Source: a virus
Strand: one strand, 5' to 3'
Length of the DNA stretch: 64,000 nucleotides
IMG/VR virus record: IMGVR_UViG_3300003773_000042
Part shown: positions 2,078 to 62,400 of the stretch, piece after piece
Layout: the number at the start of each line of letters is the position of its first letter
Numbering within the stretch: position 1 is the first letter of the stretch
Translations under genes and position numbers: made by a program
The notes under the pieces: generated by a model
What the model saw: the letters and a program-made list of their open reading frames with translations, nothing else
The model's database searches: none
Told to the model about the DNA's origin: nothing

Positions 2078-2127
2078 CCGTCGCACCTATACGCCAGTAG
2101 GCCTCAACCATTTCAAGGACAAAATCG

Positions 2128-2310
2128 ATGAATTGCCATAACAACACTACCGCAGCCTTTAAGCCTGCCCCACAAGATGCCGGCGTACTGGTTCGGCCGC
2201 TTAATGCGAAAGATGCGAAACGCCTGCAAGCCCACCTGAGCAAGTTGTCCCCGTCGGCACGAGCTCAATGCCTCGTGTCCTTCGTTCCGTCTTTCGTCCC
2301 CCGACGTTAA
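2128..2310 (+). CDS. Small hypothetical protein
   Basis: CTATAC at 2087, AAGGA RBS, terminator-like hairpin at 2331-2352. Confidence 0.5.
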   Translation: MNCHNNTTAAFKPAPQDAGVLVRPLNAKDAKRLQAHLSKLSPSARAQCLVSFVPSFVPRR

Positions 2311-2428
2311 GCCGCAAACTCACTCCCATAAGCCGACTGATGTCGGCTTATTTCATTCCAGCGAACAAACCGTTTTTACGGCTATACCGAATACAGCCAT
2401 TCGGTTGCATACCTTTTGAGGAAACACT

Positions 2429-2803
2429 ATGAGCAAATCCTTTAGTTTCAAACTGAACTGTGGGCAGTATGTGCTCCACGCGGACAACACGCCGGTTTCC
2501 CGGGTGTTGGATGAAGTGGCCATCTGCCTGGACAAAGCAAGCGGCACGCGCCACAAATTCGGAGACCCTGAGGTTGTGCGCGCCTGGCACGCAAAGACTC
2601 AGGCATCCTTCCGGGAAGTCAATCAACACGAAATGGCAGACGACCTTGTCGTCATTCAGGGCCGCTTCACGTTGGAAGACCTGAACAAGGTCATCGATAT
2701 CTCGGACTACGCCTACCGCTTGTACGAAAAGGTTATGGCAGGCACGGCAGCGATGCTGGACCTGGACGGAAACATCGTTCGCCCTGCGCTGCCTGCAGCG
2801 TAA
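2429..2803 (+). CDS. Hypothetical protein
   Basis: CTATACCG at 2382, GAGGA RBS, downstream hairpin with T-run; ends in PAA. Confidence 0.75.
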   Translation: MSKSFSFKLNCGQYVLHADNTPVSRVLDEVAICLDKASGTRHKFGDPEVVRAWHAKTQASFREVNQHEMADDLVVIQGRFTLEDLNKVIDISDYAYRLYEKVMAGTAAMLDLDGNIVRPALPAA

Positions 2804-3292
2804 CGTCTCCCTCACCGGCCACCTGGCCGGTTTTTTCATCTACGCGAGATACCTGGCCGGCGGCCGTCACCGCTCGAGTCAAGTTCGCTGGATGCTCACA
2901 AGTCGAATATCGTCGAAGTGGGTCACACCATCTTGGTCGACGATGCGACCCACTTCGATTTCATCCCGCACGCCGAAGGCAATGGCTTGACCGGGACGCC
3001 GAGCCCCGAGCTGGTCAGCCTACTCGCATGTCGAGCTGCGCTGGCGCTGGACGTGCGGTATAGCCGGCTCGATGGCGGCCTGCAGCGACATTTCATGCAC
3101 CCGAGCACGGCGTAGTCCTGGCTGGCGTTGCGCGTTGATGTTCCGGTTAGGCCGGCACCTCTCTGGCTCAGGGGTCGCTTTATGAGTTGCTCCCTAGGGA
3201 GTACACAGGTCAAGCCTCCTCCGGCCTTCCTGCGCGCAGGGTGGTGCAGGTGCTATACATGCGAGTAGGCCTATAATTCAACTCAAGGAAAT

Positions 3293-3733
3293 ATGTCCAT
3301 GACCAAAGCTGCCATTTACTTCACCAAGCCGTGCTTGCAGTGGAGTGTTCACATCGAAACCCAACTCTGCCATCCTGTAAAGTTTTACGATGGTGACGAG
3401 CCTGTCGAGCTTCACCCCACCCTTGAAACAGTTCCACTGTTGAACAAGTTTGTGGCGGGCCTCGCCGACAACACTTGCTGGGTAACCCGGGAATGGCAAG
3501 TTGATGAACCCCTGAAAAGCGGTTTTCAACCGGATGGCATCACCCAGGTCACGCTCTATCACGCAAAGCACGCCCGCCGCACGCCGGCGGAGTGGTTCCG
3601 CGTTGTCTTCGACGAAAGTCAGGACCTGTGCCTGGAAGTCGCTGTGCTCGACGAAGGGCTCGCCATCGAGCTCTTTGAAGCGTTCTGCAGTGGCCACCTC
3701 AAGATGAAGTACGCCGACCCTGTATCGGCATAA
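3293..3733 (+). CDS. Hypothetical protein
   Basis: CTATAC at 3253, AAGGA RBS, terminator at 3745-3770. Confidence 0.75.
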   Translation: MSMTKAAIYFTKPCLQWSVHIETQLCHPVKFYDGDEPVELHPTLETVPLLNKFVAGLADNTCWVTREWQVDEPLKSGFQPDGITQVTLYHAKHARRTPAEWFRVVFDESQDLCLEVAVLDEGLAIELFEAFCSGHLKMKYADPVSA

Positions 3734-3794
3734 CCACCCCCCTCAAGCCGACATCGATGTCGGCTTTTTCCATGCGTGCAGGCAAATGACGGCC

Positions 3795-3938
3795 GTGCAG
3801 CAAAAGCCAGAGTAAAAGCTGGGTGTGCAGCAAAAGCCAGAGAAGCCCGGTATCGAGGCGTGCAGCATAAGCCAGACCCCGTGCAGTAAAAGCCAGAGGG
3901 CGTGCAGCAAAAGCCAGGTCTCGTGCAGCATAAGCCAG
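3795..3938 (+). repeat. Iteron array (oriV candidate)
   Basis: Six copies of GTGCAG(C/T)A(A/T)AAGCCAG at 3795, 3825, 3860, 3881, 3902, 3923; the last four have an exact 21-bp period. Confidence 0.85.
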
Positions 3939-3950
3939 ACCCCTTTAGTA

Positions 3951-3978
3951 TTCTTAGGACTCTCAGAGTCCTTAAGAA
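3951..3978. repeat. AT-richer near-perfect palindrome next to the iterons
   Basis: TTCTTAGGACTCT-C-AGAGTCCTTAAGAA, one-base bulge. Confidence 0.65.
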
Positions 3979-6263: not shown

Positions 6264-6292
6264 TTGCCATATACACGCATTGGGTGTATAAT
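6264..6292 (+). promoter_or_regulatory. Sigma70 promoter with an overlapping palindromic operator
   Basis: TTGCCA, 17 bp, TATAAT; TATACAC-N7-GTGTATA inverted repeat at 6270-6290. Confidence 0.7.
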
Positions 6293-6347
6293 AGCATCTA
6301 ATGTGAAATATGCCAAGAAACTTTCAGCGCAAAATAAGGAGCAGCTC

Positions 6348-7744: not shown

Positions 7745-7757
7745 ATCTGGAGGAAAT

Positions 7758-9210: not shown

Positions 9211-9266
9211 ATTGGGCGCGCCGACGGCTATACCGTTCAGGATAAACACTCAACTGGAGGCAAGAC

Positions 9267-9545
9267 ATGAATGGGAAGTACATCGTGGTGTTGTTGGATG
9301 GCGACGAAGAGATTTTTACCTTCCCTGAATCGGTTCGACATGACCGTTTTTGGGAGAGCGTCCAGTACATCCGGATGGGCAGTGACGGCAACTGGAAGCG
9401 CGAGTATCGCGATGCTCAAGTCATCGCAGCCGGCTTCGTGCAGGACGGTCGCTGCAGTGGAAAAAGTGACACGTTGAACCTGGAATCCCGCGGAAACATC
9501 GATACCGCGTTGCTGCACGGGCTGCATGCCTTGCGTGCCGCATAA
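9267..9545 (+). CDS. Hypothetical protein
   Basis: CTATACCG at 9228, GGAGG RBS; ends in RAA. Confidence 0.75.
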   Translation: MNGKYIVVLLDGDEEIFTFPESVRHDRFWESVQYIRMGSDGNWKREYRDAQVIAAGFVQDGRCSGKSDTLNLESRGNIDTALLHGLHALRAA

Positions 9546-10105: not shown

Positions 10106-10474
10106 TTAGATACCGTTCGCAGCCAGGACAGTCCGTGCGTCTTTCTGGCGAAGGAGTAGCTGCTTGACGGCGTACAGCTCGGTATCGAGCGCGCCGGCAA
10201 TGGTGAGTGTCTTGATGGCCACCGTCAGCTCATTGAGTTTGTCGGCCAATTCGTATGCATTGCGCAGTTCACCCTTGAAGCCCAGCAGGGCTGCGGTCGG
10301 AGTGAACGACCCAGATGCCTTCCCTTCGACGATAAACCCAAGCTGGAGCAGCCGCTGCGCAATTGCGTGAGCAGGGAATGCCTGGCGCCCTGTTTCATGA
10401 GCTTCACAAATGCTCAGCGCGGCTTCACAAATGCTCAGCGCGGCTTCGCGCTCATCCTGGGTCAATGCGTACAT
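10106..10474 (-). CDS. Hypothetical protein with an in-frame 21-bp tandem duplication
   Basis: Minus-strand CTATAC at 10512-10517, AAGGA RBS; AALSICE is repeated. Confidence 0.65.
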   Translation of the reverse strand: MYALTQDEREAALSICEAALSICEAHETGRQAFPAHAIAQRLLQLGFIVEGKASGSFTPTAALLGFKGELRNAYELADKLNELTVAIKTLTIAGALDTELYAVKQLLLRQKDARTVLAANGI

Positions 10475-10592
10475 GGTCGGTTCCTTATTGGGCTGATTGT
10501 CTTGAAGCGAAGTATAGGAGTCTGCGTGCCGGCCACCCTATACCGAAAAGGACATTCAACCGCTCGAGAGAGCCAACTATAGAGGAAAAATC

Positions 10593-11279
10593 ATGTCGAT
10601 GACATTTGAACAATGGAAACGCCGTCCGGTGTACGTGGCGCAGTGCCACACCTGGGCATTGGCCGCAAAGCTGGATGTATGCTGCGTTCGCTTCCGCTGC
10701 CTGCCGGCATATCGTGACGCAGAAGCCCGCGTGGCGCGCCGCATTGTTGCGGAAGCAGTACGCGCTGAACGTGCGGAACGTCGTGGCCAGGCAAAACCTA
10801 CATCTGCAGGTTCTGGTTTGACCTGGTTCTGGTCCTTTGCTGGACCACGTGTAACGTACGGTGGTGCGGTTGTGCGGCATGACTTGCGTAGGGCTGCGCT
10901 TTCAGTTCTGACTGCCGGAAACTACGGGGAAATATTTGCTGAGATGAATAACATCCCACCAGTATTCCTCGCAGATATCCCGAGCGCACCTGAGCCGAAG
11001 TTCGAGCTGAAGGGGGATTGGGGCAGACTCACAATCTGCACGGCGCCTTCCGGTCAGGCTAAGCCAGGGGACGAGATGTATGCGGCCAAGACCCGCGGCA
11101 TGTATGTGCTGCGGCAAGAGCGATTCCGTCAGCAGCTGCATGATACCGGTGTCGAGCATCCGCACGATGTTTGTGCGGTAGCCCGGTCGGTTCAGGAGCT
11201 CTATGACATGGTCAATCCCCACTGGCAAAACGTGGACTTCTCCGCGGTCGCAGCTGACCTGAAGGAACTTCCACAGTAA
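10593..11279 (+). CDS. Hypothetical protein
   Basis: CTATACCGAAAAGGAC at 10538, GAGGA RBS, terminator after the stop. Confidence 0.75.
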   Translation: MSMTFEQWKRRPVYVAQCHTWALAAKLDVCCVRFRCLPAYRDAEARVARRIVAEAVRAERAERRGQAKPTSAGSGLTWFWSFAGPRVTYGGAVVRHDLRRAALSVLTAGNYGEIFAEMNNIPPVFLADIPSAPEPKFELKGDWGRLTICTAPSGQAKPGDEMYAAKTRGMYVLRQERFRQQLHDTGVEHPHDVCAVARSVQELYDMVNPHWQNVDFSAVAADLKELPQ

Positions 11280-11454
11280 CGACTCCCGGCCCCGCTCAGC
11301 ATCGCTGACGGGGCTTTTTCACGTAGCTATCTGTCTTTTTTCCATACAACTGTTGTCTCCTTTTCAGACAGGTGAGGTGGAGCTAAATAGCTATTCTACG
11401 ATATACTATGTGTAGGACACTATTTTGCATATTTATCAATTTTAGGAGGTAATA

Positions 11455-12027: not shown

Positions 12028-12117
12028 ATCTCACAGCCGCAGCTCTTCGAGTTGCGGTTTTCTTTTGCCGGCGCCGCGGCTATACCGAGAAGGACAACTT
12101 ACTTTTCGGAGGAAATT

Positions 12118-12555
12118 ATGAGCAACAAGACCTACACCATTTCGGCAATCTACACCGACAACAAGCAGCGCTACGCGCCCAACGGTGTCGGTGAAACGGT
12201 CACGGAAGCCGTTATCGATGCCATTCGCCAGGCACGTGCAGACAACAAGTGCAGCACGCAAATGCTGGATGTGTTTGCTGTCTTTGAAGGGGAGCACGAA
12301 TGCCGGGATATCACGGTAACGTATTCGACTGAACGGCCGAAACGTGTGCGCTGCCGGGCGAAACATGAGCGTCCGTTTACGGTCGCCCATGAGACTGGCG
12401 CATTTCACGTCGAAGCGCTTAATGCCATAGAAGCCGAGCTCATGTACGATGAAGGTAAGGTTTCGGGCGTTTTCCGCGGCCACCTGACAAACCTGGCGCA
12501 CGAAATCAACTGGTGCGCTGTGCACTGGGCGGTGAACATGAATGCAGCAGCGTAA
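12118..12555 (+). CDS. Hypothetical protein
   Basis: CTATACCGAGAAGGAC at 12080, GGAGG RBS before ATG12118; ends in AAA. Confidence 0.75.
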   Translation: MSNKTYTISAIYTDNKQRYAPNGVGETVTEAVIDAIRQARADNKCSTQMLDVFAVFEGEHECRDITVTYSTERPKRVRCRAKHERPFTVAHETGAFHVEALNAIEAELMYDEGKVSGVFRGHLTNLAHEINWCAVHWAVNMNAAA

Positions 12556-12641: not shown

Positions 12642-13163
12642 TTAAGCAGCAGCTGGATACCAGACCTTGTCGGCTGGCCAGGATTTCATATCTTCTTCAG
12701 TCGGCCAGGTGTCGTGCACATAGCGATGGAACATCGGCAGCTCAAAAAAGCTCGAGACACCGGTGTCGCACTCAGCATCGAAATGCAGCCATGAGTCGCC
12801 TGGACCTACCTTAGCAACTACCCAGATGTGGGCGCCGAAGCTGATGGCGTTCAGTTTCTTCCAGGTTGTGCCGGACGGAGGTTTGATATTCCAGTGCTCG
12901 CGGAGCAGCTTGGAATCCCAGTCTTCATTGGTTTCATAGTCTTTATAGAAACCAGCGGTCTCGACCGCATACAGGTTGTCGCTTTCAGCGATACCCCAAC
13001 CCCGCAGCTTTGCTAGTACATCCTCGGCGAAGTCTTCGCACAGGCCGTTGTTGATTTCGAACAGCGACATGCGTACGCCCGGCCGGACTTCCTGCTTTAC
13101 CAGGTAGACGGTTCGGACTTCTTGAATTGCCTGCAGAATGGTTTGTTGCGAAAGCTCACGCAT
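12642..13163 (-). CDS. Hypothetical protein
   Basis: Minus-strand CTATACCGAGTAGGAC at 13184-13199, AAGGAG RBS; ends in AAA. Confidence 0.75.
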   Translation of the reverse strand: MRELSQQTILQAIQEVRTVYLVKQEVRPGVRMSLFEINNGLCEDFAEDVLAKLRGWGIAESDNLYAVETAGFYKDYETNEDWDSKLLREHWNIKPPSGTTWKKLNAISFGAHIWVVAKVGPGDSWLHFDAECDTGVSSFFELPMFHRYVHDTWPTEEDMKSWPADKVWYPAAA

Positions 13164-13231
13164 AGTGGAACTCCTTTGAATTTGTCCTACTCGGTATAGG
13201 AGTTCTAAAGGAGCTGCGCGCGCGCCAGGCG

Positions 13232-13901: not shown

Positions 13902-14613
13902 TTACTGCATCCTTTGGCGTTGATTATGCTCGGTCCACAGCTCGCGCCTGGCCTGGTTCTCAATGGAGACACACTGACAGGCGTGCATACCTGCGCAGCC
14001 GCAGATGGCCACCATGCGCGTGGTCACGTCAGCGCCAGAAATGGGGCCGCAGTCCGGGCGCCGCGCTATGCAGCGCGCCTGGTTGACACCAGAGTTGTCG
14101 AATTTCGAAAGCATCTTGCGGTTCTGGTTCAGTAGCGCAGAGCTGGTTTTTCGGGAATGACCGGGATGGCCATCGTGCGAGTACGGTACGGGTCGTTCAC
14201 GTGCTTGACCGCGCCAGAAAAGCTGAAGAGTCGTCCGGCCGGAGGATTTCGCGAAGCGGGCGCGGCCGACATCGAAGGATGGCTATTTTTTACGGGAGAC
14301 TGACCAATCCCGCTATGTGCGTTCGAATTCGAGCTCATGGCGTGCGCGTCCTATTCCTAGAGGGTGCCTGGGGTATCAAGAAGGCTGCTTAAAATTACGG
14401 TGATTTCCATCATTATATCACAAAATGACGCGAAGCTTGCGATTTGCTCGATTAATGATATACTGTGAAATGTGTAATTCGTCAAGTTGGCGATACCCTA
14501 CGGTCTCCGCAGTCTTGCGGAGTTTGTTTTCACAGATAGCTTCCAAGGAGTACGGAGCCCCGCGCGCATCGTGAGCGAGCTATCCGCTTGTCGCCACAGG
14601 CTTCATTGAACCT

Positions 14614-15165
14614 ATGTCCCAAAAAGGCCCAATCAACCAGAAGGCAGTGATTGCCTACTGCCACAAAGACAAGTCTTACCAGAAGGCGATTGAACTGGCT
14701 AAAAAGCTGTACGCAAAGCGTAAGCGCAAATACTCCGGCGTCGCTTACTGGAGCCATCCGTTGACCGTCGCTTCTCTGTTGCTGGAAGTCGGTGTGGCGA
14801 GCGAAGCCATGGTCGCATCGGCGCTGCAGGACACCCTGACCCACTCCACCCTGAAAGAAGCAACCATCCGCGCAGAATTTGGCGATGTGGTCGCAGACAT
14901 GGTGCTGGTGCTGACCCCTCTGTCGGGCGAGCTTGAAGCTCTGGCGTTTGCCGCCTATAAAGCCAAGCTGGCTGGCGCCAGCCCAGAAGTCCAGACCATC
15001 AAGCTGGCCTCCATCCTGGACGACCTGTGTGCCATTCCGACTTCGAAGGTGTCCGCCGAATCCGAATTCATCGACAACTGCGCTGAGCTGGCCGGCGTGC
15101 TGACCCTGGGCAATGCCGAACTCGCGCGCCGCGTGCAGTCGGTTATCCGTCTCGCGCGCTCCTGA
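14614..15165 (+). CDS. RelA/SpoT-hydrolase-like (Mesh1/SAH-like) HD-domain protein with a degenerate active site
   Basis: RKYSGVAYWSHPLTVA...ASALQDTLTHS...AEFGDVVADMVLVLT...IKLASILDD follows the (p)ppGpp hydrolase HD fold, but HD reads QD. Confidence 0.7.
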   Translation: MSQKGPINQKAVIAYCHKDKSYQKAIELAKKLYAKRKRKYSGVAYWSHPLTVASLLLEVGVASEAMVASALQDTLTHSTLKEATIRAEFGDVVADMVLVLTPLSGELEALAFAAYKAKLAGASPEVQTIKLASILDDLCAIPTSKVSAESEFIDNCAELAGVLTLGNAELARRVQSVIRLARS

Positions 15166-15245
15166 CCAGGCGAACAAAAAGGAGGGCTCAGGCCCTCCTG
15201 CTCGTTTAAGCCAACTGGCCGAGAAGGCCGTAATTCAGGAGTTTT

Positions 15246-17822: not shown

Positions 17823-17839
17823 TTCTTCCTATACTAAAA
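17823..17839 (+). promoter_or_regulatory. 17-bp promoter-like element TTCTTCCTATACTAAAA
   Basis: Exact repeat at 22771-22787; each copy lies at the head of a block of pilus genes. Confidence 0.65.
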
Positions 17840-17960
17840 ATCGTGCCTCCGAGCAGTTGCTTTGCTCGGCTTAATTTTTATGCAATCGGATACACAAGTG
17901 ACGACACCTTCCACTCATAACACGGGTGCCTTGCGCCCTGCAGTAGGCATCCGTAAAGGG

Positions 17961-22691: not shown

Positions 22692-22770
22692 ACCACGAAA
22701 CCGTGGAGCAAACAGGCCCCTCCTTGCGAGGGGCTTGTCATATCTGGGCTACTAAATATATGCCTATTCT

Positions 22771-22787
22771 TTCTTCCTATACTAAAA
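22771..22787 (+). promoter_or_regulatory. 17-bp promoter-like element TTCTTCCTATACTAAAA (copy 2)
   Basis: Identical to 17823-17839; 30 bp upstream of the ATPase start. Confidence 0.65.
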
Positions 22788-25963: not shown

Positions 25964-26130
25964 AAATTTTTGATTTCAAAAAGTCTCACTTTTTAAATGG
26001 AATTTGCTTGACAAAAGTGAGATTGTGTGAGTTTTCGTGAAAACATGCACATATTGCTCACTATACTAGTCATCGCCGGTGAGTTAACTGGCGAATTAAA
26101 TTCCTCAACACTTACAAAGGCTAACAACCC

Positions 26131-26667: not shown

Positions 26668-26838
26668 TGTGGGAATCGATAGTGAGGTCCTGAGGCGCGA
26701 GCGAGAAGAGCGCTTACGTGATTCGGCGCCTCAGCCTGGCTGCGAGTGTTGTGTTCATACAAAACTACACTTTTTTGGTACGACCATGCACCTATACGGA
26801 GTTGCAGCAATTTTGCTGAACTACATAGGACATACTCA

Positions 26839-28973: not shown

Positions 28974-29147
28974 TGGTGTCCTTGCTGATGCACTGGTACA
29001 AAACTCAAGTACAAACTGAACTTGCAGTATACCATAATAAGCCTTATATTGCTCGACATTTTCATATTGAATACCTTCTCGCTCACACTGCACTTGGTGC
29101 TTTGGGCCTATACGGTGTAGGTCATTAACTAATTGAAAGGCACTATC

Positions 29148-30259: not shown

Positions 30260-30338
30260 CAGGGCCATGGGCGCCAATACGCCGCTATACGGTCTTGAAA
30301 GGATTCCATCTCGGAATTCAGATAACTGAGGAAAAATC

Positions 30339-35623: not shown

Positions 35624-35669
35624 CATTTCAGGCCTATACGGGTACAGGACAACTATTTACGGGAAAATC

Positions 35670-42224: not shown

Positions 42225-42465
42225 GATTTTTCCTCAAAGGTAGTTTATTCCAGTTACGTATAGACTACCTGAGCTTCAAGATGAAGGCCGACACCTGGGC
42301 TTGGCTTGGTCAAGTGCACCACCTGGCGGTCGCACATGCCATGCGCGCCAGCGCACCTGGTTGCGGTTTCCCAGGGACTGGCGATATATTTGAAACCATC
42401 ACGCTGGAGTAGCATCTGAGCGCTAAGCCAGCAAACCATCAACGCGCTAAGAGTGCCATAAATCT

Positions 42466-48569: not shown

Positions 48570-48661
48570 GTTCCGCCAACCTGCCGAGCGGCTGGCGGAC
48601 AGCTTCCCCAGTACGCTGCCGCTCCTATACTCAGCAGGTCAACTCACTGAATGAAAAGCAC

Positions 48662-49090
48662 ATGAAAACCATTGCTGATATCGTTGTACTGCTGAAAAAC
48701 GGCGCCAAGCCTGTTGTCGAATTCGGTTCGGCCATCGGAGATAAAGAGCATTACGCGGAAACCGGTATGCGCGCGCGAGCAATTCGAGTTCAAAATGAAG
48801 GCGACTCCGTGGTAGGTATCGTCTTCCAGTTCGGCGAATTCGACGCACACAACCTCCCGCTGGAGCAAACGAACTACTATGACAAGTCGGGGAATCCTAC
48901 GCTCACCGCGCGTGAAGCGGGGTACTATCGACCGGAGGATAACGTGTACTTCGACCTCGACGAACCGCTGGAAAAACTGTTCTCCATCGTTGCGGCTGAA
49001 CGGCTCGCACTGTATGAACAATACCTGGCATCGGCGGCCGGCGAAAGCTACATCAGCTGGCTGGAAACGAAATTCCTGGCGGCAAATTAA
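48662..49090 (+). CDS. Hypothetical protein
   Basis: CTATACTCAGCAGGTC at 48625. Confidence 0.75.
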   Translation: MKTIADIVVLLKNGAKPVVEFGSAIGDKEHYAETGMRARAIRVQNEGDSVVGIVFQFGEFDAHNLPLEQTNYYDKSGNPTLTAREAGYYRPEDNVYFDLDEPLEKLFSIVAAERLALYEQYLASAAGESYISWLETKFLAAN

Positions 49091-49438: not shown

Positions 49439-49479
49439 GCCTATACGGGGATAGGTCAACTATTCCCAAGGAGCTTCAA

Positions 49480-49770
49480 ATGGTAGGTCAAATTCATCCA
49501 TCGCACGTCTTGCCTGAAAAACTGTTCATGCGGCTGCGGTCCCTGAAGGCTCACAACCTCCACGGCGACTGCTACAAGATGGCGGCTAAGGCACTGGGCC
49601 TGACGCTGCTCGAACAGATGTTCACGCAGTACAATGAAATCCAAATGCGTGAAGGCGAACTGCGCCATGAGATTTACCAGGCGCGGCATCGTGCATACGA
49701 GCAGCTGCTGAAAGAAGCGAAATCTCGGCTGTCGAAAGAACAGTACGACAAGCTCTATATGTGCTTCTAG
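49480..49770 (+). CDS. Hypothetical protein
   Basis: CTATACGGGGATAGGTC at 49441, AAGGAG RBS. Confidence 0.75.
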   Translation: MVGQIHPSHVLPEKLFMRLRSLKAHNLHGDCYKMAAKALGLTLLEQMFTQYNEIQMREGELRHEIYQARHRAYEQLLKEAKSRLSKEQYDKLYMCF

Positions 49771-49867: not shown

Positions 49868-50374
49868 TTACTTGGTCAGGTTGAACCAGGCAGGCATCCG
49901 GAGACACAGCCAGCGATGCTCAGCACCGTTCTCGATGACCATGGAATCGGTCGTGTCAACTTCGGTCTTGAACACATCCGTGTCGGTGACGTCGAAACCG
50001 TAGTACGACACTTCGGCCTGGAGCGCTACCTTGTGCACAAGGTAGGGAGGCATTGCCGTACCGGTGGCATACTCGACGTGAACTTCAGAGCAGATACCGA
50101 ACTGCTTCAGCACGCTCAGCTCATCTTCGGTCAGCCAGCGGCCACCGCGGTCGCCAGGTTTGTTGACCAGGCGCAGGCGAGTATGGTTCTTGATGGTGAC
50201 GTCTGGCTCATGCAACCACACTTCATTGGGCACCTGGCCCAAGTCCTTGTAGTTGATGGACAGCTCGCCTTTTTCCAGCACTTCAACTTCGCCAATACGG
50301 GCATCTCGCAATGCTTCGATGACGTCTACTGCGGAAGCGTCGGATACGACAACGGTAACAAATGCCTTTTTCAT
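49868..50374 (-). CDS. Hypothetical protein
   Basis: Minus-strand CTATACCGAGTACGGAC at 50410-50426, GAGGA RBS. Confidence 0.75.
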   Translation of the reverse strand: MKKAFVTVVVSDASAVDVIEALRDARIGEVEVLEKGELSINYKDLGQVPNEVWLHEPDVTIKNHTRLRLVNKPGDRGGRWLTEDELSVLKQFGICSEVHVEYATGTAMPPYLVHKVALQAEVSYYGFDVTDTDVFKTEVDTTDSMVIENGAEHRWLCLRMPAWFNLTK

Positions 50375-50520
50375 GTTTATTTCCTCGGTATATCGGGTTC
50401 CGGGAATCGGTCCGTACTCGGTATAGCGCCGACCAGGCGCTGCACGCGGTAGACATACCTTGCGATTATGCAATTTCGCCTGTAGCCTAACGGAATATTC
50501 GCCAATACAGGAGTTAACCA

Positions 50521-51162: not shown

Positions 51163-51254
51163 GCCGGCGCTTCCGGCCCGTTACGACCTTCGGACTGCTA
51201 CTATACCCAGATGCACAGCTTCCACCTGGAAGCTCACTATAGGACGGAGGACAA

Positions 51255-51533
51255 ATGAAACAATTACCGAGCGAAGTACTCGAGCAGCGCCTGAAAGCGG
51301 AGTATCCGCCGGACGCGACAAGCTGGAGCGATGCAACCGAAGAAGTGCGCGACATGTACCGTGAAGCGCGTAAACTGGCTGGCGTATCTGATGAAACCAC
51401 TCTCAATTTTCGGCTAATAAACGACCCGGCTCAGTGGAATACCCAGGGCATCGCCGGCATCATGAAGTTCTACGGCATGTTGGATGTGAAAAAGCAGCAG
51501 GAATTCTGCTCGCGGTTCAAGGCATTCTACTGA
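51255..51533 (+). CDS. Hypothetical protein
   Basis: CTATAC at 51201, GGAGG RBS. Confidence 0.7.
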   Translation: MKQLPSEVLEQRLKAEYPPDATSWSDATEEVRDMYREARKLAGVSDETTLNFRLINDPAQWNTQGIAGIMKFYGMLDVKKQQEFCSRFKAFY

Positions 51534-52620: not shown

Positions 52621-53763
52621 TTAGGCAATGGCTGTCAGGCGAGACTTCAACCTGCTGACCATGGTTTTGGTCTGGCCTATCACTTTGCGGCCGCGCGAAC
52701 TACGTTCGGCCGCCAGCTCTTCTTCCGTTGGGTCGGTGGTGTAGAGCGGTTCCATATGGGCGCCGGCGGCGTTTTGGATGGCGGTGTGCTCTTCACTTAC
52801 CTCCGCTGCAGTCAGCTCATGGTCAGCCTGGTTATGGGCTGCCTTGACGCGACGCTGTTCGTACCAAACCAGGCCGAAGCATGCCGGCAGTGTCAGTGCG
52901 ATACCTGCGAGCGCAGTGGTGGAAACGTGCTCGTTCAGGATTACCGCAGCAAACAGAACCGTCAATGGCAAGGTCAGGAACGACAAAGCGTTAACCGTCA
53001 GTGCTTTACCGTGCTGGTAGGCCAGCGAGGTGCACAGTTGGCCACCGCAGGTCAGAATCGCCAGAACGAAGGTTACCAGCAGGTCGCGTGCCGTAACCTG
53101 CCATTGGCCGGTCACGAGGCAGTAGATGATGGCAACACCACCGGTCAGGGCATGCATCCAGAAAACACCACGCAGCGCAGGCTCGCCTGTGATAGCGAGT
53201 TTACGCATGTAGATTTGGAGCAGGGAACCCGACAAACCACCCAGCAGGCCAACGCCGATGAAGCCGAGGCTCACGTCGTCGAGGTAGGGCAGTGCGTTGA
53301 CGCCAACACCGAGGAATCCAACGCAGGTCAGCAGGATGGCGACGAAGGTTACCGACTCGCCCAGGAACAACGGCGCCAGAAGCGCAGTGAACAGGGGAGT
53401 GGAATAACCCAGCGTGCTGGCCAGGCTGGCTGGCATGTGACGAACGGTGAAGTACAGCACAAGGACCACCATGGCGCCGAAGAACGCACGCAGCACATAC
53501 ATCGTGCTGTATTTCTGGTCGAACTTCAGGCTGACCTTTTTCTTGCGAGCCATGAATCCCAGAATCGGCACCAGGAAGATGCTTTGCAGCGCCATGATGA
53601 CACCGAGCGACAGGTGGGCTGGAGTGGCCTTAGTAACGATTGCGCGCGAGGCGTACATTAATGCCGCGGACAGGGCCAGGACTACGAAGGCCGGAATAGC
53701 GGTTACTCGAACGACTTTGCTAACAGATTGCCAGAAAGTACCCTTATTTGTAGCGTATTGCAT
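52621..53763 (-). CDS. EamA/DMT-family transporter
   Basis: About 10 TM segments; ASTLGYSTPLFTALLAPLFLGE. Confidence 0.9.
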   Translation of the reverse strand: MQYATNKGTFWQSVSKVVRVTAIPAFVVLALSAALMYASRAIVTKATPAHLSLGVIMALQSIFLVPILGFMARKKKVSLKFDQKYSTMYVLRAFFGAMVVLVLYFTVRHMPASLASTLGYSTPLFTALLAPLFLGESVTFVAILLTCVGFLGVGVNALPYLDDVSLGFIGVGLLGGLSGSLLQIYMRKLAITGEPALRGVFWMHALTGGVAIIYCLVTGQWQVTARDLLVTFVLAILTCGGQLCTSLAYQHGKALTVNALSFLTLPLTVLFAAVILNEHVSTTALAGIALTLPACFGLVWYEQRRVKAAHNQADHELTAAEVSEEHTAIQNAAGAHMEPLYTTDPTEEELAAERSSRGRKVIGQTKTMVSRLKSRLTAIA

Positions 53764-54016
53764 GAATCACTATCCTTTGTTTGAAAGCTTGAAAAAATGT
53801 TTCCACTTTTTCGTATAGTGATAGATGGTTGCATCGCAGCAATTTTGTGTTATACAAGCCCGCGCCAGGTTACGTTAGCTGATTGGGCCTGATTAGCTGC
53901 GCAGCTAACATAGGGGAACTTCATACCTCGAGCGCAGCATCCTGGTCGCGAAGGGCGGCGTGCCGGCGCCTGGCCTATACGGAGATTCAAGGACAAATCT
54001 CTAGAAAGGACCTCAG

Positions 54017-54523
54017 ATGGAAATTCAAGTATTCACCTATGACGGCATGGACAAGCGACTGGAAGTCGTCAAGAACCTGCTGGTCACACTGCAATCCGCT
54101 GGCTTTACCGTACAGCTGGTTCACTGCTCAATCGCCACCGCGCGCCTGATGGGCTCGCAGCTCGGCGAGTCGGTGATGTCGGCGTATGACCTTCAGTTCA
54201 CGAACGTCGAAGCGGACTGCTTTTTGGTCGTGGATGCGGATATCGTGGCGCCAAAGACTGTTCGCCGCATAGAAAGCTTTGGCAAGCGTGTGTACGCTGT
54301 TGTGCCAAAGGAAGCGCTTTCATCGGTGAGGGACAATAAAACCACCCTGAACTTCAAGGACAAGCACGACCGTGTTGAGATTATTCCCAGGCTGATGGAT
54401 GACGACAATATGCCGCGTACTGCAGCCTGTCACCACTTTGCAGATACCTGCATGAGTTGTGAGGGCCTGGTCCTCAATTGGATGGCTGACCGGCGTGACC
54501 GCGCGGCCGGCGAAGGAAGTTAA
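54017..54523 (+). CDS. Hypothetical protein
   Basis: CTATACGG at 53975, AAGGA RBS. Confidence 0.7.
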   Translation: MEIQVFTYDGMDKRLEVVKNLLVTLQSAGFTVQLVHCSIATARLMGSQLGESVMSAYDLQFTNVEADCFLVVDADIVAPKTVRRIESFGKRVYAVVPKEALSSVRDNKTTLNFKDKHDRVEIIPRLMDDDNMPRTAACHHFADTCMSCEGLVLNWMADRRDRAAGEGS

Positions 54524-54633
54524 CTAGTCGAATTCCCACCCTCGAGCCCCGCAATTCCTATGGAACTGTGGGGTTATTTCATTTCTGACTTTGCATACAT
54601 TGCTATACCGAGACTTACCTCAAAGGATTGAAA

Positions 54634-55092
54634 ATGCAAGTACGAAATTTGGTCGTAGGCATTGCAGTAGCAGCTGTAATGGTAGGGTGTGCTACTCCTC
54701 GCCAAATGATTTTTGACACCGAAGTTGACCGGTTGTGTGTTACGGAGGGTGGTGTGCGAGTGTATGAGACTGTACCGACATCGCGAGCTCAACTTAGGTC
54801 GGATGGCTATCCAGCAGCGTGGGATTTTTCTAAAGGCGAATATGCCCTAGGGCCAGACTATAAAGTAATTTTTGAAACTCAGGTTTTGAAAGGCGCAACT
54901 AGTGCTGATGAGGGGGCACAGATTGTCAAATATGTTTTTGAAGTATATAGGCGGGCAGATAACCGGCTACTAGGGGTCGACTACTCGTTTGCACGTAAAG
55001 GAGGAGATGCTATTCAACTGCACCCTTCATCGCATTCGTGTCCGCCCGTTACCCAAGATGTCGTTAAGTCAATCTTCAAAGTGAAGGATTAA
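54634..55092 (+). CDS. Lipoprotein
   Basis: Lipobox VMVGC; AT-richer sequence; CTATACCG at 54603. Confidence 0.7.
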   Translation: MQVRNLVVGIAVAAVMVGCATPRQMIFDTEVDRLCVTEGGVRVYETVPTSRAQLRSDGYPAAWDFSKGEYALGPDYKVIFETQVLKGATSADEGAQIVKYVFEVYRRADNRLLGVDYSFARKGGDAIQLHPSSHSCPPVTQDVVKSIFKVKD

Positions 55093-56296: not shown

Positions 56297-56548
56297 CTAA
56301 GTCGCTATGGTATCAAACTGCTGCTCGGCGCCGTCTGGAAGTGGCTGGGACGGGTAGGCGGCCAAGATGGTCGCGTCGGCTTTGCGGAACCGATTCACAG
56401 CGTTCCAAACCGATTGAGGTGACATGTCCAGCGCGCGCGCAGTATCCGTGGGCCTGGCGCCATGCAAAATTACCTGCCGGGCGGCCTCGCACGGTTTCCC
56501 TTTGGCGCCAGTCAGCTTCGCGACCGCGTCAAACTGCTTCAAATTCAT
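56297..56548 (-). CDS. TrfB/KorA-like HTH transcriptional repressor
   Basis: QFDAVAKLT...EAARQVILHG...TARALDMSPQSVWNAVNR. Confidence 0.75.
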   Translation of the reverse strand: MNLKQFDAVAKLTGAKGKPCEAARQVILHGARPTDTARALDMSPQSVWNAVNRFRKADATILAAYPSQPLPDGAEQQFDTIAT

Positions 56549-56560
56549 CGCTCGACTCCG

Positions 56561-57282: not shown

Positions 57283-60200
57283 ATGCAGGCCATGAGTGAC
57301 AACAACATCATCATCTTCGACAATCAGGATGAGCTGGGCGACAACATCTCACGCGAACAAAGCCTCAATGCCATCGAGCCTGGCCACCACTGGTTCTGCC
57401 GTCAAGATGTCAGCAGCATCAACGCAGGCGATGAGCGCTACGGGTTCAAATTCCATGAAGGCCAGGTCTACCTGCTGACCCGGCTGGTCTATTTTGATGG
57501 CCAATTGCACTCTGTGGAGCTGCTGGACGACCCCCTGCTGGGTAAGGAATCTGGCACGCTGACCCTGCCGCTGCTGCTGGAGAACTTCGAGCAGCTGAGC
57601 GACGATGCGGCCAAGGCCTTCCGTCAGGAGCAAATGCTGGCCATCCAGGGTGACGCGGCCGAGGTTCAGAAAGAAATGGCTGAAGCTCAGATGAATCCGC
57701 GATTGCTCGATGAGGTCGTGGCCGAGGGCCTGGAGAAGTGGGAGCGAGAACTGGCGCATGCCAACCGACGTGATGACGACGAGGATGAGGCGCCCAAGCC
57801 AGCGCAAGTTCCGGCACTGTCGACCAACGGCCAATTCAACCTGACTGGCGCCATCAAGCACCGCATTTCGTCTACCGACATCGCTGTATTCCGCCACATG
57901 GCGCAGCGCGAAGGCAAAATTGCTGAAATCCGCGGCAAATGGCTCACTTCGAAGGTTGAGCAAATGGCCGGCATCCTCAAGAAACTGGCGCCGTTCTACT
58001 CCGAGCAGTCGGCAATCGGCCTGGCACGCGCACATGAAGCCATGACCCTGGCAAAGGACGTGGAAAAGGGTCTTGTATCCCTGCGTCTGTACACAGGGGA
58101 GGGCGTCAGCTTCGAAACCATCGCCAGCGGCAAGTCGGCGCCGGCGGACGAAAAGCTGACCATCTACCAGCGCAAACTCTTCATGGATGAGGAGTTCGCC
58201 GTGTGGACCGACGTCGACAAGCTGTTCGACTACACCCATACCGAGGAGTTCTTCAAGGCGCTGCGCGAGAATGATTCCCTGCGTCAGCAGCTTATTCCGG
58301 CTCAACGCGGGGTGGTCGCCATGGCCGTGCGCCATAGCGACGTGAACTATGAGCCAAAGAACCTGGCTGAACTGCTCGACGCCATGGCAAAGAATCGCAC
58401 CAATAAGGCACTGTTCCTGCTGGTGCGCGACGGCGAAAACTGGTATCAGGTCTGGTCGGACGAGCCGAGTCATGAGCTGTCGCCGCGCCTGTTCCCGACT
58501 CGAAATGAGATGGATAAGATTTTCGACGGCTTCGATGGCGAGAAAATCGGGTTCGAGGACCTGCGTTTCACCCATCGCACTGACAAATTCGACAAGCTTT
58601 CTCTGGCATACAAACGCTTCCTGATTCTGGCCTGCGGCCTGGACCATTCCAAAAAGCTGTTCGGTTATTTCTACCCTGAGAATGAAGCTTTGAGCTTCAT
58701 TTCGATGGACTTTCAGCGCAAGTACATGCGTTTCGTTAGCGATGACGACGGCGACGTGATGTTGGGCTCTCACCTGGTGGATGTGCAGGACGTCGTCAAA
58801 CAGAACCACAGTCAGCTCGCGGCCGGCTCGCGTGTTTTGGTGTTTAGCCGTGACGCGTTGGCTATTCGAGAGGCAGCACCTGGTGCGTACAATAACGGTC
58901 GCTATGAGCATGGTCGGGGCACGGTCTATGACCGTATGGTTAAGCCTCAGTTCAAGGCCATTATGCTGACCGTCCGCCGTGACAAAGATGACCTGGTCGT
59001 GTCCTTGCCGGTGGTTCGCAAAAACGACTATGTGCGCAAAGGCTGGAGCGGCTTCGAGCCGGCCATACGTACGCACCATTCCGTAAAGGTCGCACTCAAT
59101 AAACTCGGCTCCAATGGTCTGGGCTATCTGATTACGGATACCCTTAATCCAGACGAACTGCGCCCTTACATCTACAGCCGTGCCCAACGTTCGCACCACC
59201 TCGACTATCTGTATGGCTTCAAGCTCGCCATCCAGTATCTGAACGATGAACGTGCTGCAAATGCACCTGTGATGGCGCACATGGTCGATGAGGCTAGCGT
59301 TAAATTCGGACTGGCCCCTGATGCAGCAGCTATTGCGGCAACTTCTGCGGCACAGGGCTGGCGCCTGAAAAACCCCGATGCCGACAAACTGCCGGCCGTC
59401 GACTCGCCAACCTACGCCGAGCTGGACTTCCAGCTGGCAGAAGCGGCATACGCGTTTACCCACGCCATACCGAAGGTGGAAGCACAAATTACTCGCTTGG
59501 GCGGCAAGCTGGTGCGCGTCATGCGCGGTAAAAAGGGCTCCCTCATCGCCTACTACGAGCAGCCAGAAGTCGAGAAGGATTTCCGCATCAAGAACTGGCG
59601 CTGGGTTGGCCGTCGAGTGTTCAGTGCCGCCGGGGTGCCGTCCAAAGAGGCCCCATCAACGGTATGGATGCAGGCTGGTCGCATCGTCGGCGAAACGGAG
59701 CTGTATCAGGCCCCTACTAACATGGCACACCCATTCGCAGATAAAGACAACGCGACTTTCGTCTCCCTGCAGCAGAAGCTGAATATGGTCGACGAGATGG
59801 CCGACGTCTTGGCAAACGCCTTCAAAGGCGAACGCCAGGGTGTGAGCGACCAAGCGTGGGTCATGTTCACTGCGGAGAATGAAGCCGAAAAACACCGTAC
59901 CCGGCATCACCACAAAGAGCCAGGCTTGAAGCGCGATAAAAAAATCGTGCTACCTGTCGCAGTGGAAACGAACAAGAACGCCATGCTGGCAATCGAGGTA
60001 AGCCTGTATGACCTCCTGTACTTCTATGGGTCGGATGCGCAGCGCGCCGCCTTAACCGAGCAAGGTTATACCATCCCGAAACCGCAGAAATTGTACGACG
60101 GGACGAAAAAGCCTTTCGAAGGCGCCAAAATCGCATTGGTTCAGGTGAACTATTTCTATTTGTCGCAGTTCACTGGGCCAGTCGGAACCGACGTGCATAC

Positions 60201-60420
60201 TTCCGGTTCTCATGATTTCGATTTCGGCCCATACGGTTACGAGGGGTCAAATCGCCTTGATTTCTCCCTAAATCATGTGCTGTCCCCTCAAGGATTCAAG
60301 GCTGAGCGGCGCGCACATTCGAAACGTGAAGCACCGACGTTGTGGATTCCCAAAATCTACCTGGCTGAAGATGGTACTGCAGCGCTGTCGCGTATGTTCC
60401 CTGAGCTTAAGACGGCCTAA
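57283..60420 (+). CDS. Large hypothetical protein (1045 aa)
   Basis: Uninterrupted ORF with typical codon usage, AGGG RBS, N-terminal coiled coil; no family recognised. Confidence 0.85.
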   Translation: MQAMSDNNIIIFDNQDELGDNISREQSLNAIEPGHHWFCRQDVSSINAGDERYGFKFHEGQVYLLTRLVYFDGQLHSVELLDDPLLGKESGTLTLPLLLENFEQLSDDAAKAFRQEQMLAIQGDAAEVQKEMAEAQMNPRLLDEVVAEGLEKWERELAHANRRDDDEDEAPKPAQVPALSTNGQFNLTGAIKHRISSTDIAVFRHMAQREGKIAEIRGKWLTSKVEQMAGILKKLAPFYSEQSAIGLARAHEAMTLAKDVEKGLVSLRLYTGEGVSFETIASGKSAPADEKLTIYQRKLFMDEEFAVWTDVDKLFDYTHTEEFFKALRENDSLRQQLIPAQRGVVAMAVRHSDVNYEPKNLAELLDAMAKNRTNKALFLLVRDGENWYQVWSDEPSHELSPRLFPTRNEMDKIFDGFDGEKIGFEDLRFTHRTDKFDKLSLAYKRFLILACGLDHSKKLFGYFYPENEALSFISMDFQRKYMRFVSDDDGDVMLGSHLVDVQDVVKQNHSQLAAGSRVLVFSRDALAIREAAPGAYNNGRYEHGRGTVYDRMVKPQFKAIMLTVRRDKDDLVVSLPVVRKNDYVRKGWSGFEPAIRTHHSVKVALNKLGSNGLGYLITDTLNPDELRPYIYSRAQRSHHLDYLYGFKLAIQYLNDERAANAPVMAHMVDEASVKFGLAPDAAAIAATSAAQGWRLKNPDADKLPAVDSPTYAELDFQLAEAAYAFTHAIPKVEAQITRLGGKLVRVMRGKKGSLIAYYEQPEVEKDFRIKNWRWVGRRVFSAAGVPSKEAPSTVWMQAGRIVGETELYQAPTNMAHPFADKDNATFVSLQQKLNMVDEMADVLANAFKGERQGVSDQAWVMFTAENEAEKHRTRHHHKEPGLKRDKKIVLPVAVETNKNAMLAIEVSLYDLLYFYGSDAQRAALTEQGYTIPKPQKLYDGTKKPFEGAKIALVQVNYFYLSQFTGPVGTDVHTSGSHDFDFGPYGYEGSNRLDFSLNHVLSPQGFKAERRAHSKREAPTLWIPKIYLAEDGTAALSRMFPELKTA

Positions 60421-60462
60421 GGTTCAGCACTATACTAAAAAATCCTTTCATACTAAGCCCTT

Positions 60463-61188
60463 ATGTTTAAAACAACCCTTCTTGCAATGATGCTGGCCAT
60501 CGCTGGTTTGCCTGCTTACGCCAGCGACTATTTTATCGTGGTGCCAGTAAAGGGTAAGACCTTTAACGAAAGCGCTATCTCGGTCACACTAGCACCGAGT
60601 TCGCTGCCTGTTGCACTGGCAGGCCAGGCCTACAGCTACGACTTCAAGCACAACTTGACTGTCACTGGGGATTCGGCATTCATTGGCGCCGGTGTCGGAT
60701 GGACCGTTACACAGGGCTCCGTACCCGCAGGTTTGGCTGTCGATACTCATGGCGTGTTGGCCGGTACACCCTCTGCAGCAGGGACATATTTGTTCACCCT
60801 CAAGGCATCCTATCGTACCAAAGCAGGACAACAACTCTACCAGGTCGAAGTCACCAATCCTTTCCCGATGGCGACCAATGCGGGTTTGACGTTTGTTGTT
60901 CCAAGCATGGCGCTACAGTCGCTGACGGCAACCCGTGCGGCGTGCGGTGCCGTCATCAACGGTGTATCAGGCTGGCGTGTGCCAACTTCGGACGAGCTGG
61001 GTGCGATGTTTGGAGCTAAGGGTGCGCCTGCGCTGTCTGCTGCAGGCTGGCCAACGGATACTGGAGACTGGTACTGGACTGACACCGCGTATGGCGGTGG
61101 TAAATGGATTGTGCAAAAACCGTACAACAACTCCGCCAGCGTCTGCTACGACGGCGATGTTTGTGCACGCTCCGTTTGCGTTCGATAA
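60463..61188 (+). CDS. Secreted adhesin-like protein: Ig-like (He_PIG) plus DUF1566-like domain
   Basis: Signal peptide, DYFIVVPVKGK, VPAGLAVD..GVLAGTP, GWRVPTSDEL...GWP....YWT; CTATACTAAAA at 60430. Confidence 0.75.
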   Translation: MFKTTLLAMMLAIAGLPAYASDYFIVVPVKGKTFNESAISVTLAPSSLPVALAGQAYSYDFKHNLTVTGDSAFIGAGVGWTVTQGSVPAGLAVDTHGVLAGTPSAAGTYLFTLKASYRTKAGQQLYQVEVTNPFPMATNAGLTFVVPSMALQSLTATRAACGAVINGVSGWRVPTSDELGAMFGAKGAPALSAAGWPTDTGDWYWTDTAYGGGKWIVQKPYNNSASVCYDGDVCARSVCVR

Positions 61189-61213
61189 GGGACGGTAATG
61201 AATCAGAAATCTT

Positions 61214-61717
61214 TTGTTGGTTGATGAAGGCTCAATTGTGATTTCACTCCAAGAGGTTTTCAGTGGCAATCCGTTTGCGGACCATCCTCAGCTTCGCACC
61301 ATCTGGCCGGCTGAGTTTGCGGTAATCGCTGAAGAAGCTGCCGTGGAGTCGCTCGAGGAGGCGAAGCATGGCGACATCGGCGGCCTGTTCCTGGTTGCGA
61401 AAGACGACCAGATTATTGGCATAACAGGCTATTTTTACTGCGAAGACATCGACGAGCCCTTCCTTCGATGGCACGGAATTATCCCTGCTGAACGAGGCAA
61501 TGGTTACTCCGGCATCGCGCTTCGCCAGGTGGTCGACCGCATCAAAGACAAGCTTCCCGCCGCGCGCGGCTTGACTGAGCTTGTCCCGCAGAACGGCGCA
61601 GGCCCGGAAATCGAAAAGCACTTTGTTTCCCTGGGCTTTACGCGGAACGGCGTTCAGGAGAAATACGACTGGTCCCCTTACGCATGGCAGCCAATTCGGC
61701 TCGACCTGACAACTTAA
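61214..61717 (+). CDS. GNAT-like acetyltransferase
   Basis: IIGITGY...RWHGIIPAERGNGYSGIAL...FVSLGF. Confidence 0.6.
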   Translation: MLVDEGSIVISLQEVFSGNPFADHPQLRTIWPAEFAVIAEEAAVESLEEAKHGDIGGLFLVAKDDQIIGITGYFYCEDIDEPFLRWHGIIPAERGNGYSGIALRQVVDRIKDKLPAARGLTELVPQNGAGPEIEKHFVSLGFTRNGVQEKYDWSPYAWQPIRLDLTT

Positions 61718-61728
61718 CTGAGGCAACT

Positions 61729-62223
61729 ATGAGCATTGCAGAAGCATACAAACCAGACGCAAAACGTGAAGCGCTGAAAACCCGTCCGGGGGACTTCGAA
61801 AACCGCCTGTTCTTCGCCGCGCGCAACCTGGCCATCGAGGCCTTGATGCTGCGCATCGAGACGGGCATGCTTCGTAAAGGCTTCGATGTTGACGTGGAAT
61901 GGCGTGAGTCATCCTACGGCGGGCCGACCCTTGCGATGAAGCTCAAGAATCCCAAGCTGACTCCTACGTCCGCTTGGACCTACGCTGAAGCGACGGTGAG
62001 CATCAGTCGCGACCGCATCAACGTTCTCGAGCGTCACAAGCTCTCGGACTGCTTCTATAGCGTCACTGCCGTACACCCGACGGAGCATTGGCCATTCAAG
62101 GTCTCCAAGTATGTTCAGGGCTTCCGCGACCTGGTGAAGCAGCTGGGCGATGAAGGCTACTTTGCGGCCGAAGTGAACAAGGTCAACTACCCCTTCGAAT
62201 ACAACTCGAGTAGCAGCTATTAA
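61729..62223 (+). CDS. Hypothetical protein
   Basis: GAGG RBS before MSIAEAY. Confidence 0.7.
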   Translation: MSIAEAYKPDAKREALKTRPGDFENRLFFAARNLAIEALMLRIETGMLRKGFDVDVEWRESSYGGPTLAMKLKNPKLTPTSAWTYAEATVSISRDRINVLERHKLSDCFYSVTAVHPTEHWPFKVSKYVQGFRDLVKQLGDEGYFAAEVNKVNYPFEYNSSSSY

Positions 62224-62400
62224 GGCATCGAGCCGGGCAGCCACGCGGATTACGCCAATTTCCACGTGGCAACTATTTCGAAAGCATATGTCTGATATTT
62301 CTTGCGAATCAAGGAGATACTTGACCTAAGGTCAGAAAATGGCAGCTCGTTAGTAAAGTATTGAACACTATACTACTAACATATCCAGCTAACGACTACC

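Follow-up and report, generated by a model that had tools for sequence, protein, structure and literature searches.

The late promoters of phage T4, TATAAATA, are read by gp55 together with gp33 and the gp45 clamp on the host core polymerase, whilst T7-type promoters are conserved over about 17–23 bp, have CTATA immediately ahead of the start and each belong to a single element, and the AcaCD/SetCD boxes of IncC plasmids and SXT are longer activator sites placed upstream of a normal promoter. As for host factors, the -10 consensus of RpoS (sigma-S) promoters in Escherichia coli and Pseudomonas aeruginosa is CTATACT, with no distinctive -35 (PMC3923258, PMC9793710), and sigma-70-type factors flip out and bind the T at -7, a T-7A change costing 200–700-fold in affinity (PMC3753650). 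We have analyzed the hexamer CTATAC in a stretch of viral-record DNA of 64,000 nucleotides (the window; IMG/VR record IMGVR_UViG_3300003773_000042), which is a piece of a rhizosphere metagenome contig of ~572 kb and has a GC content of 57%. A first-pass annotation of this window had seen in CTATAC a window-wide, -10-like element heading single-gene units and read by a plasmid-encoded sigma factor or activator. The results obtained indicate that CTATAC, with T, G or C but not A as the next base, forms the -10-type core of a second promoter class devoid of a -35, and that it almost certainly represents a lineage-specific promoter class of the replicons under study.

Placement and sequence of the CTATAC hexamer

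CTATAC occurs 35 times in the window, counting both strands, against 8.7 on average and 17 at most in dinucleotide-preserving shuffles of the same DNA. Judging intergenic and coding status from our own rough gene calls, 25 copies are intergenic, or 27 upon addition of those at 42258 (-) and 54603 (+), which were scored as coding through spurious open reading frames (ORFs) only; each of these copies is oriented toward the next gene on the same strand and is followed by a Shine-Dalgarno sequence (SD) and a start codon. When a site is taken as configured if it has an SD plus a start codon 22–55 nt downstream, opening an ORF of at least 50 aa, CTATAC yields 18 configured sites, the mean over 90 hexamer permutations of the same composition being 1.2, and the runners-up among these permutations are shifted versions of CTATAC itself. 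This positional enrichment bears out the earlier claim that the motif stands upstream of start codons on both strands. In agreement, all 20 copies that had been listed are exact CTATAC on the strand given; the list was correct as far as it went, and what it omitted were five CTATACT sites (17829, 22777, 26061, 60430 and 62368), which precede pilus or adhesin genes and read CTATACTAAAA or close to it.

The signal is short and strict. Single-letter variants are scarce in the window (CTATAT 4, CTATAA 8, TTATAC 5 and ATATAC 10, as compared to 35 for CTATAC), which indicates that both flanking C's are part of it. Of 37 sites scored in the window and its relatives together, 23 have the start codon 30–39 nt past the last base of the hexamer, and 33 have C or G as the preceding base, the commonest preceding pairs being GG, TC and GC. 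The seventh letter, analyzed over 75 sites of the family, is T in 28, G in 23, C in 23 and A in a single one. No informative column is found between -50 and -1 in 27 aligned sites, so that the lack of a -35 box noted previously holds. Further downstream, AGGWC (W being A or T) lies within 16 nt of the hexamer at 8 of 25 sites, where 0.6 would be expected, with a spacing of 5–6 nt in seven of the eight and of 5–9 nt overall; the AGG(A/T)C extension proposed earlier is therefore real, albeit partial. A GC-rich palindromic 5-mer is present up to 30 nt upstream in 8 of the 18 sites of class B, against a background of 21%, and we do not claim it as an element. Two intragenic copies, at 20960 and 21436, are kept in relatives and encode Tyr-Thr in conserved protein motifs, which makes a promoter explanation unnecessary for them.

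CTATAC heads about 40% (24/60) of the genes that have an upstream gap of their own, and not all of them, which narrows the window-wide scope put forward in the first-pass annotation. The units so headed mostly comprise one or two genes that code for small unknown proteins, to which the pilus and adhesin genes are added. The genes without CTATAC have textbook promoters, either TTGACA-17-TATAAT or TGnTATACT, invariably with T at -7, and two distinct promoter classes consequently coexist. Backbone genes with sigma-70-like promoters comprise the helicase-like gene, the divergent pair at 6.3 kb, the operon of the HD_4 and secA-like genes (a TG-extended TATACT at 14437–14464) and the gene of a 1045-aa hallmark protein; TGGTATACT stands before 57283 and before 28973 (-). 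A separate observation concerns positions 11405–11440 (+), upstream of 11455, where an ATATACT promoter, with A at -13 in place of C, has AGGAC 6 nt downstream; the two promoter classes may share this pentamer in their start regions.

The arrangement of the sites bears on what kind of signal this is. The copies at 10512 (-) and 10538 (+) are back to back, 20 bp apart, and fill a gap of 118 bp between diverging genes, from which it follows that both transcripts must start there; those at 53813 (-) and 53975 (+) are likewise placed between diverging genes. An RNA-level signal, acting in processing, antitermination or translation of read-through transcripts, would be in keeping with the presence of the motif in the would-be leader of each gene, and read-through from upstream is conceivable given that a strict terminator hairpin is found within 70 nt upstream in just 6 of 25 sites, a proportion for which the earlier statement that the motif usually follows the previous terminator was too strong. 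However, no upstream transcript can feed the genes of the two divergent pairs, several sites are positioned 12–30 nt behind strong terminators with no room for another promoter, and the window has no match to any Rfam family; we regard an RNA-level role as having only a slim chance of being correct.

That the hexamer is instead the operator of an element-encoded repressor or silencer, overlapping weak promoters and not itself a promoter core, is very unlikely as well, if slightly less so. The window does encode small helix-turn-helix (HTH) proteins, for example the KorA-like product of the small gene at 56297–56548, and contains two inverted pairs, GTATAG-N20-CTATAC at 10512/10538 and a pair with 8-bp arms at 45657/45688. 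Yet the site comprises 6–7 nt, is non-palindromic, is present in one copy at most promoters and always has the sense orientation at a fixed distance from the start codon, and an operator reading is not suited to a short site locked in orientation; moreover, nothing else that resembles a promoter is conserved nearby to be repressed. The second inverted pair, CGGTATAG-N24-CTATACCG (45657–45693), is perfect over its 8 bp and lies inside the coding region of 45481–46599, an apparently imported gene with a low GC content at third codon positions (GC3). Neither of its arms has an SD or a start codon after it, and the pair resembles the one at 10512/10538 with no obvious target.

A promoter core of the -10 type thus fits the fixed orientation and start distance, the lack of a -35 and the divergent pair within 118 bp, and the first-pass proposal of a -10-like element is on this point sound. 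With the first C at -13 and TATAC at -12 to -8, transcription would start 6–9 nt downstream, often within the conserved AGGWC, and the leaders would be of roughly 20–35 nt and include the SD, as estimated from the presumed start.

The replicon family and the distribution of the signal

Rhizosphere metagenomes contain contigs, the longest of 572 kb, that encode a protein identical to the secA-like product of the window, and relatives at 70–76% identity are found on a 643-kb contig of Burkholderia ubonensis (LPAX01000060.1) and on metagenome contigs of 508–699 kb. The second hallmark of the family is the 1045-aa protein (57283–60420, +), of which copies 50–65% identical are encoded on contigs of 431–643 kb, the carriers including B. 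multivorans, B. ubonensis, Paraburkholderia aspalathi and Paraburkholderia sp. EG287A. In PLSDB, 1244 plasmids have a homologue with ~30% identity, most of them conjugative and from Klebsiella, Enterobacter and Escherichia, and judged from its sequence the 1045-aa protein is a very widespread plasmid backbone protein; it has no Pfam, PDB-sequence or Foldseek match (predicted local distance difference test, pLDDT, of the model 78.5).

Nearly all proteins of the window were scanned against Pfam and PHROGs. Among the products are an AAA_25 helicase-like protein, a complete SecA paralogue, an HD_4 hydrolase and the secretin, T2SSE and T2SSF proteins of a pilus cluster, and Ig-domain adhesin-like genes, HipBA, a methylase, GmrSD, HNH, a gp30.3-type NADAR protein and many small genes without a family are also present. 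No phage structural gene was detected in these scans, for which reason giant plasmid-like replicon is a fair label. The window has no near match in PLSDB or in the phage collection, the secA-like protein reaches at most 44% identity to anything in PLSDB, and in IMG/VR no match was obtained with this protein, with its family alignment or with the T2SSE ATPase. Scans of genome and metagenome contigs with peptide patterns, which were too generic, recovered housekeeping secA loci only, and literature searches on the replicon family gave no match.

Comparison with relatives evidences that the hexamer is retained where its surroundings are not. At matching intergenic sites of the B. ubonensis contig LPAX01000060.1 and of a 699-kb JGI contig, both of 61.6% GC as against 57% in the window, CTATAC is kept and the flanks have diverged; these sites are located past the secA-like gene and ahead of the T2SSE ATPase, the second pilin and the NADAR gene. 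Behind the secA-like gene the hexamer is kept in five relatives, the seventh letter at this site being T in four elements and G in one (L094). The motif also recurs often, and in the right position, in two relatives with 50–55% identity in the secA-like protein, in a 629-kb Paraburkholderia contig (sp. EG287A, JBFRCE010000009.1) and in the DNA that flanks the window on both sides.

A distinct picture emerges outside the family. Family DNA has 0.46 CTATAC per kb, with 0.31–0.55 per kb in motif-positive loci, whereas the chromosomal control, composed of 351 kb of housekeeping secA neighbourhoods (80 metagenome loci, 54–66% GC), has 0.10 per kb. For configured sites the figures are 0.18 per kb in the family and 0.011 per kb in the control. 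Low densities are likewise found in a Vibrio element (0.13 per kb), in a 566-kb Variovorax megaplasmid (0.07 per kb) and in a 398-kb P. aeruginosa megaplasmid of 57.9% GC (0.12 per kb). Closer to the family, a related 500-kb element (L107, ERZ12293588 scaffold_27_c1), which has 57.1% GC, a hallmark protein 42% identical and a packing of small genes similar to that of the window, contains 0.04 CTATAC per kb, that is, one copy in 23 kb. The same density is observed in its IMG/VR relative (L110, 75 kb), the hallmark protein identity of the two elements being 42–44%, and a search of IMG/VR with the 1045-aa protein gave two contigs, both motif-negative; this element presumably uses another promoter signal. 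The difference in density between family and control indicates that the signal belongs to one lineage and is not a by-product of base composition, and the replicon specificity proposed in the first place is supported, as the motif is absent at such levels from the related giant element and from the two megaplasmids. Within the window, the apparent cargo, namely HipBA, the methylase, GmrSD/HNH and the low-GC3 genes at 44–47 kb, is without the motif.

Which factor reads the signal

We put at about even the chance that a specificity factor encoded by the element recognizes the CTATAC class. The host core RNA polymerase would in this case work with a factor that is sigma-like, as gp55 of T4 is, or that appropriates a host sigma, and the factor itself would be expressed from one of the host-type promoters, in a two-tier logic. 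An element-encoded factor is favoured over host RpoS alone by the letters at -7, by the interchange of T and G, by the coexistence of host-type promoters and by the motif-free cargo.

Several results weigh against such a factor. The core is identical to the published -10 consensus of host RpoS, likewise without a -35, an identity that had been overlooked when the -10-like element was first proposed; five sites read CTATACTAAAA, a textbook sigma-S -10 with an AT-rich discriminator; and A is nearly absent at -7, where the T-7 pocket of a sigma-70-type factor would also select against it. The first-pass annotation had postulated a plasmid-encoded sigma factor or activator, and no element-encoded sigma, RNA polymerase or activator was found in the family DNA that could be reached. 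Using E. coli RpoD, RpoS and RpoE and T4 gp55 as queries, no sigma-like ORF was detected in 322 kb of family DNA, a redundant set of which ~200 kb are non-identical and which corresponds to perhaps a quarter of one replicon, RpoD being recovered in a control locus. The Pfam and PHROGs scans of the window proteins identified HTH proteins and no sigma factor or polymerase, and a weak Sigma70_r4 match (E 4.6e-4) relates to a protein that was not pinned down and is probably one of these HTH proteins. Of the large unknown proteins, the 1045-aa one alone has a DxDGD-like loop, and its confidently predicted fold has no polymerase match. An element-encoded factor of the kind considered here could be too divergent for profile searches.

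Two large proteins were considered as candidate readers and rejected. In the 1045-aa protein, taken as a possible two-barrel polymerase on account of a DDDGD loop, the first D alone is near-invariant, the loop is disordered and no PDB match is obtained; and an 1180-aa protein encoded to the left of the window is of low complexity.

The identity of the core with the RpoS -10 consensus and the occurrence of CTATACTAAAA at five sites make host sigma-S a serious candidate. According to this explanation the promoters are read by host RpoS alone, or by RpoS and RpoD, the replicon being tuned to the stationary-phase and stress sigma, and the sites with T at -7 (pilin, adhesins) would be strong and those with C or G weak. 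The consensus CTATACT and its lack of a distinctive -35 (PMC3923258, PMC9793710), the presence of C at both -13 and -8, the class A sites that read CTATACTAAAA, the rarity of A at -7 and the negative search for a private sigma are all as expected under host RpoS, and since the sigma-70-like promoters of the element also favour TATACT, the promoters could form a continuum. Nevertheless, 46 of the 75 family sites have C or G at -7, and promoters of this kind, with neither a -35 nor a TG extension, would be expected to serve a group 1 or 2 sigma very poorly. At an orthologous site, T and G replace each other in a seemingly neutral manner. Furthermore, the exactness of the hexamer is far above that of natural RpoS regulons, and a related giant element of the same GC content does not have the motif. 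To RpoS as the sole reader it can also be objected that the apparent cargo regions are motif-free and that textbook host promoters coexist in the non-motif genes. Altogether, we consider a reading by host RpoS unlikely, though deserving of attention.

Returning to the element-encoded factor, a more comprehensive proposal can be made, which we advance tentatively and rate as somewhat short of probable. It states that the window belongs to an undescribed family of replicons of 0.5–0.7 Mb having a transcription programme of its own, exerted through a non-canonical factor (a minimal sigma or an appropriator) acting on a strict 7-nt promoter that has no -35 and no requirement for T at -7, by which the genes would be insulated from the host sigmas.

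Individual sites and comparison with described systems

The sites under discussion and two contrasting promoters are compiled in the table. Downstream of the CTATACT at 17829, a terminator-like hairpin (17849–17869) begins 15 nt past the motif, and the closest relatives, L010 and L011, have retained the one and the other. The stretch (17829–17880) might act as an attenuator or give rise to a short leader RNA. The ATPase and second-pilin CTATACT sites have TTGTCA/TTGACA-like hexamers 37–41 bp upstream (22717–22760 and 26001–26020), also kept in L010 and L011. This distance is too large for a -35 box, and an activator might bind the hexamers at the pilus promoters specifically. As to gene order, the HD_4 gene, which is small alarmone hydrolase-like, lies directly 5' of the complete SecA paralogue (14614–17789, +), and the pair is found in every relative examined.

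Coordinates of 25 CTATAC sites of the window and of two contrasting sigma-70-like promoters; the seventh letter is in brackets, except in CTATACT, and L010 and L011 are the closest relatives
Signal	Position	Strand	Context
CTATAC(G)	2087..2092	+	37 nt before small ORF 2130-2312 (60 aa in L101)
CTATAC(C)	2382..2387	+	41 nt before gene 2429-2803
CTATAC(A)	3253..3258	+	34 nt before gene 3293-3733; sole window site with A next
CTATAC(C)	9228..9233	+	20 nt past terminator hairpin; 33 nt before gene 9267-9545
CTATAC(T)	10512..10517	-	gene 10106-10474 (-); half of divergent pair
CTATAC(C)-N5-AGGAC	10538..10559	+	gene 10593-11279; other half of divergent pair
CTATAC(C)-N5-AGGAC	12080..12101	+	20 nt past terminator; 32 nt before gene 12118-12555
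CTATAC(C)-N5-AGGAC	13178..13199	-	gene 12642-13163 (-)
CTATACT	17829..17835	+	right after secA-like gene; hairpin, then secretin/pilus operon downstream
CTATACT	22777..22783	+	35 nt before T2SSE-type ATPase gene 22818-24287; kept in L010 and L011
CTATACT	26061..26067	+	before second pilin-like gene 26131-26586; kept in L010 and L011
CTATAC(G)	26792..26797	+	41 nt before gene 26839-27153
CTATAC(G)-N5-AGGTC	29108..29129	+	gene 29148-29660
CTATAC(G)	30285..30290	+	past terminator; 48 nt before NADAR (gp30.3-like) gene 30339-30788; kept in L010, flanks diverged
CTATAC(G)-N6-AGGAC	35634..35656	+	12 nt past terminator; 30 nt before gene 35670-36134
CTATAC(G)	42258..42263	-	33 nt before gene 41850-42224 (-)
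CTATAC(T)-N5-AGGTC	48625..48646	+	gene 48662-49090
CTATAC(G)-N6-AGGTC	49441..49463	+	gene 49480-49770
CTATAC(C)	50421..50426	-	46 nt before gene 49868-50374 (-)
CTATAC(C)	51201..51206	+	48 nt before gene 51255-51533
CTATAC(G)	53813..53818	-	49 nt before EamA transporter gene 52621-53763 (-)
CTATAC(G)-N9-AGGAC	53975..54000	+	gene 54017-54523
CTATAC(C)	54603..54608	+	about 19-25 nt before gene 54628-55092
CTATACT	60430..60436	+	27 nt before adhesin-like gene 60463-61188
CTATACT	62368..62374	+	27 nt before adhesin-like gene 62401-63699
Contrast: sigma-70-like TTGACA-17-TATATT	279..307	+	before AAA_25 helicase-like gene
Contrast: divergent sigma-70-like pair	6264..6316	both	TTGCCA-17-TATAAT (+); TTGGCA-17-TATTAT with TG (-)

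These replicons occur in culturable Burkholderia and Paraburkholderia, as well as in uncultured relatives from soil, and their genes are mostly of unknown function. If a private factor reads CTATAC, they would be plasmid-like elements of half a megabase organized in a phage-like transcription hierarchy, which is rare; the motif would then mark transcription units for annotation and separate native genes from imported cargo, and the regulator could be found by comparing motif-positive and motif-negative relatives. An insulated programme would mean that hundreds of mostly unknown genes per replicon are shielded from host sigma factors. Were host RpoS the reader, the result would be more ordinary though still of use, with a whole giant replicon wired to the host stress sigma. 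The present analysis contributes the seventh position occupied by T, G or C and, but for one site, not by A, the interchange at an orthologous site, the coexistence with canonical promoters, the motif-negative relatives by which the lineage is delimited, the cultured carriers and the negative sigma search over several hundred kilobases.

In comparison with described systems, the analogy with AcaCD/SetCD drawn in the first-pass annotation is limited to the idea of one element-encoded factor that activates many scattered genes of the element. It does not fit otherwise, since in those systems an activator site stands ahead of a normal promoter, whereas the signal described here is of 6–7 nt, stands at the -10 itself and has no other promoter element nearby. 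Promoters of T7-like RNA polymerases share with it the CTATA before the start and the confinement to one element, but here only the hexamer and an AGGWC at a variable spacing (5–9 nt) are conserved. The TG at -15/-14 of sigma-70 extended -10 promoters is not a feature of these sites either.

The two remaining systems are nearer. RpoS promoters have identical core letters, including the C at -13 and the C at -8, and no conserved -35, and an AT-rich stretch follows the hexamer in a subset of the sites here. They differ in the near-invariant T at -7, where two thirds of the sites here have C or G, followed by G, and T is found in only 28 of 75, and in being degenerate, unlike the exact hexamer of this family; in addition, ~40% of the units of a single replicon lineage are marked here by the motif, which related elements and control DNA lack. 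The T4 late promoters are alike in consisting of a short and strict -10-only element that lacks a -35, serves many genes of the element itself and works beside host-type promoters. They are unlike in sequence, which is here CTATAC(B), B being any base but A, and not TATAAATA, and in their setting, as no gp55-like ORF was found with T4 gp55 in the family DNA sampled and the replicon is plasmid-like, with no phage structural genes in the window scans. The finding is one of a sigma-S-like core in a T4-late-like architecture.

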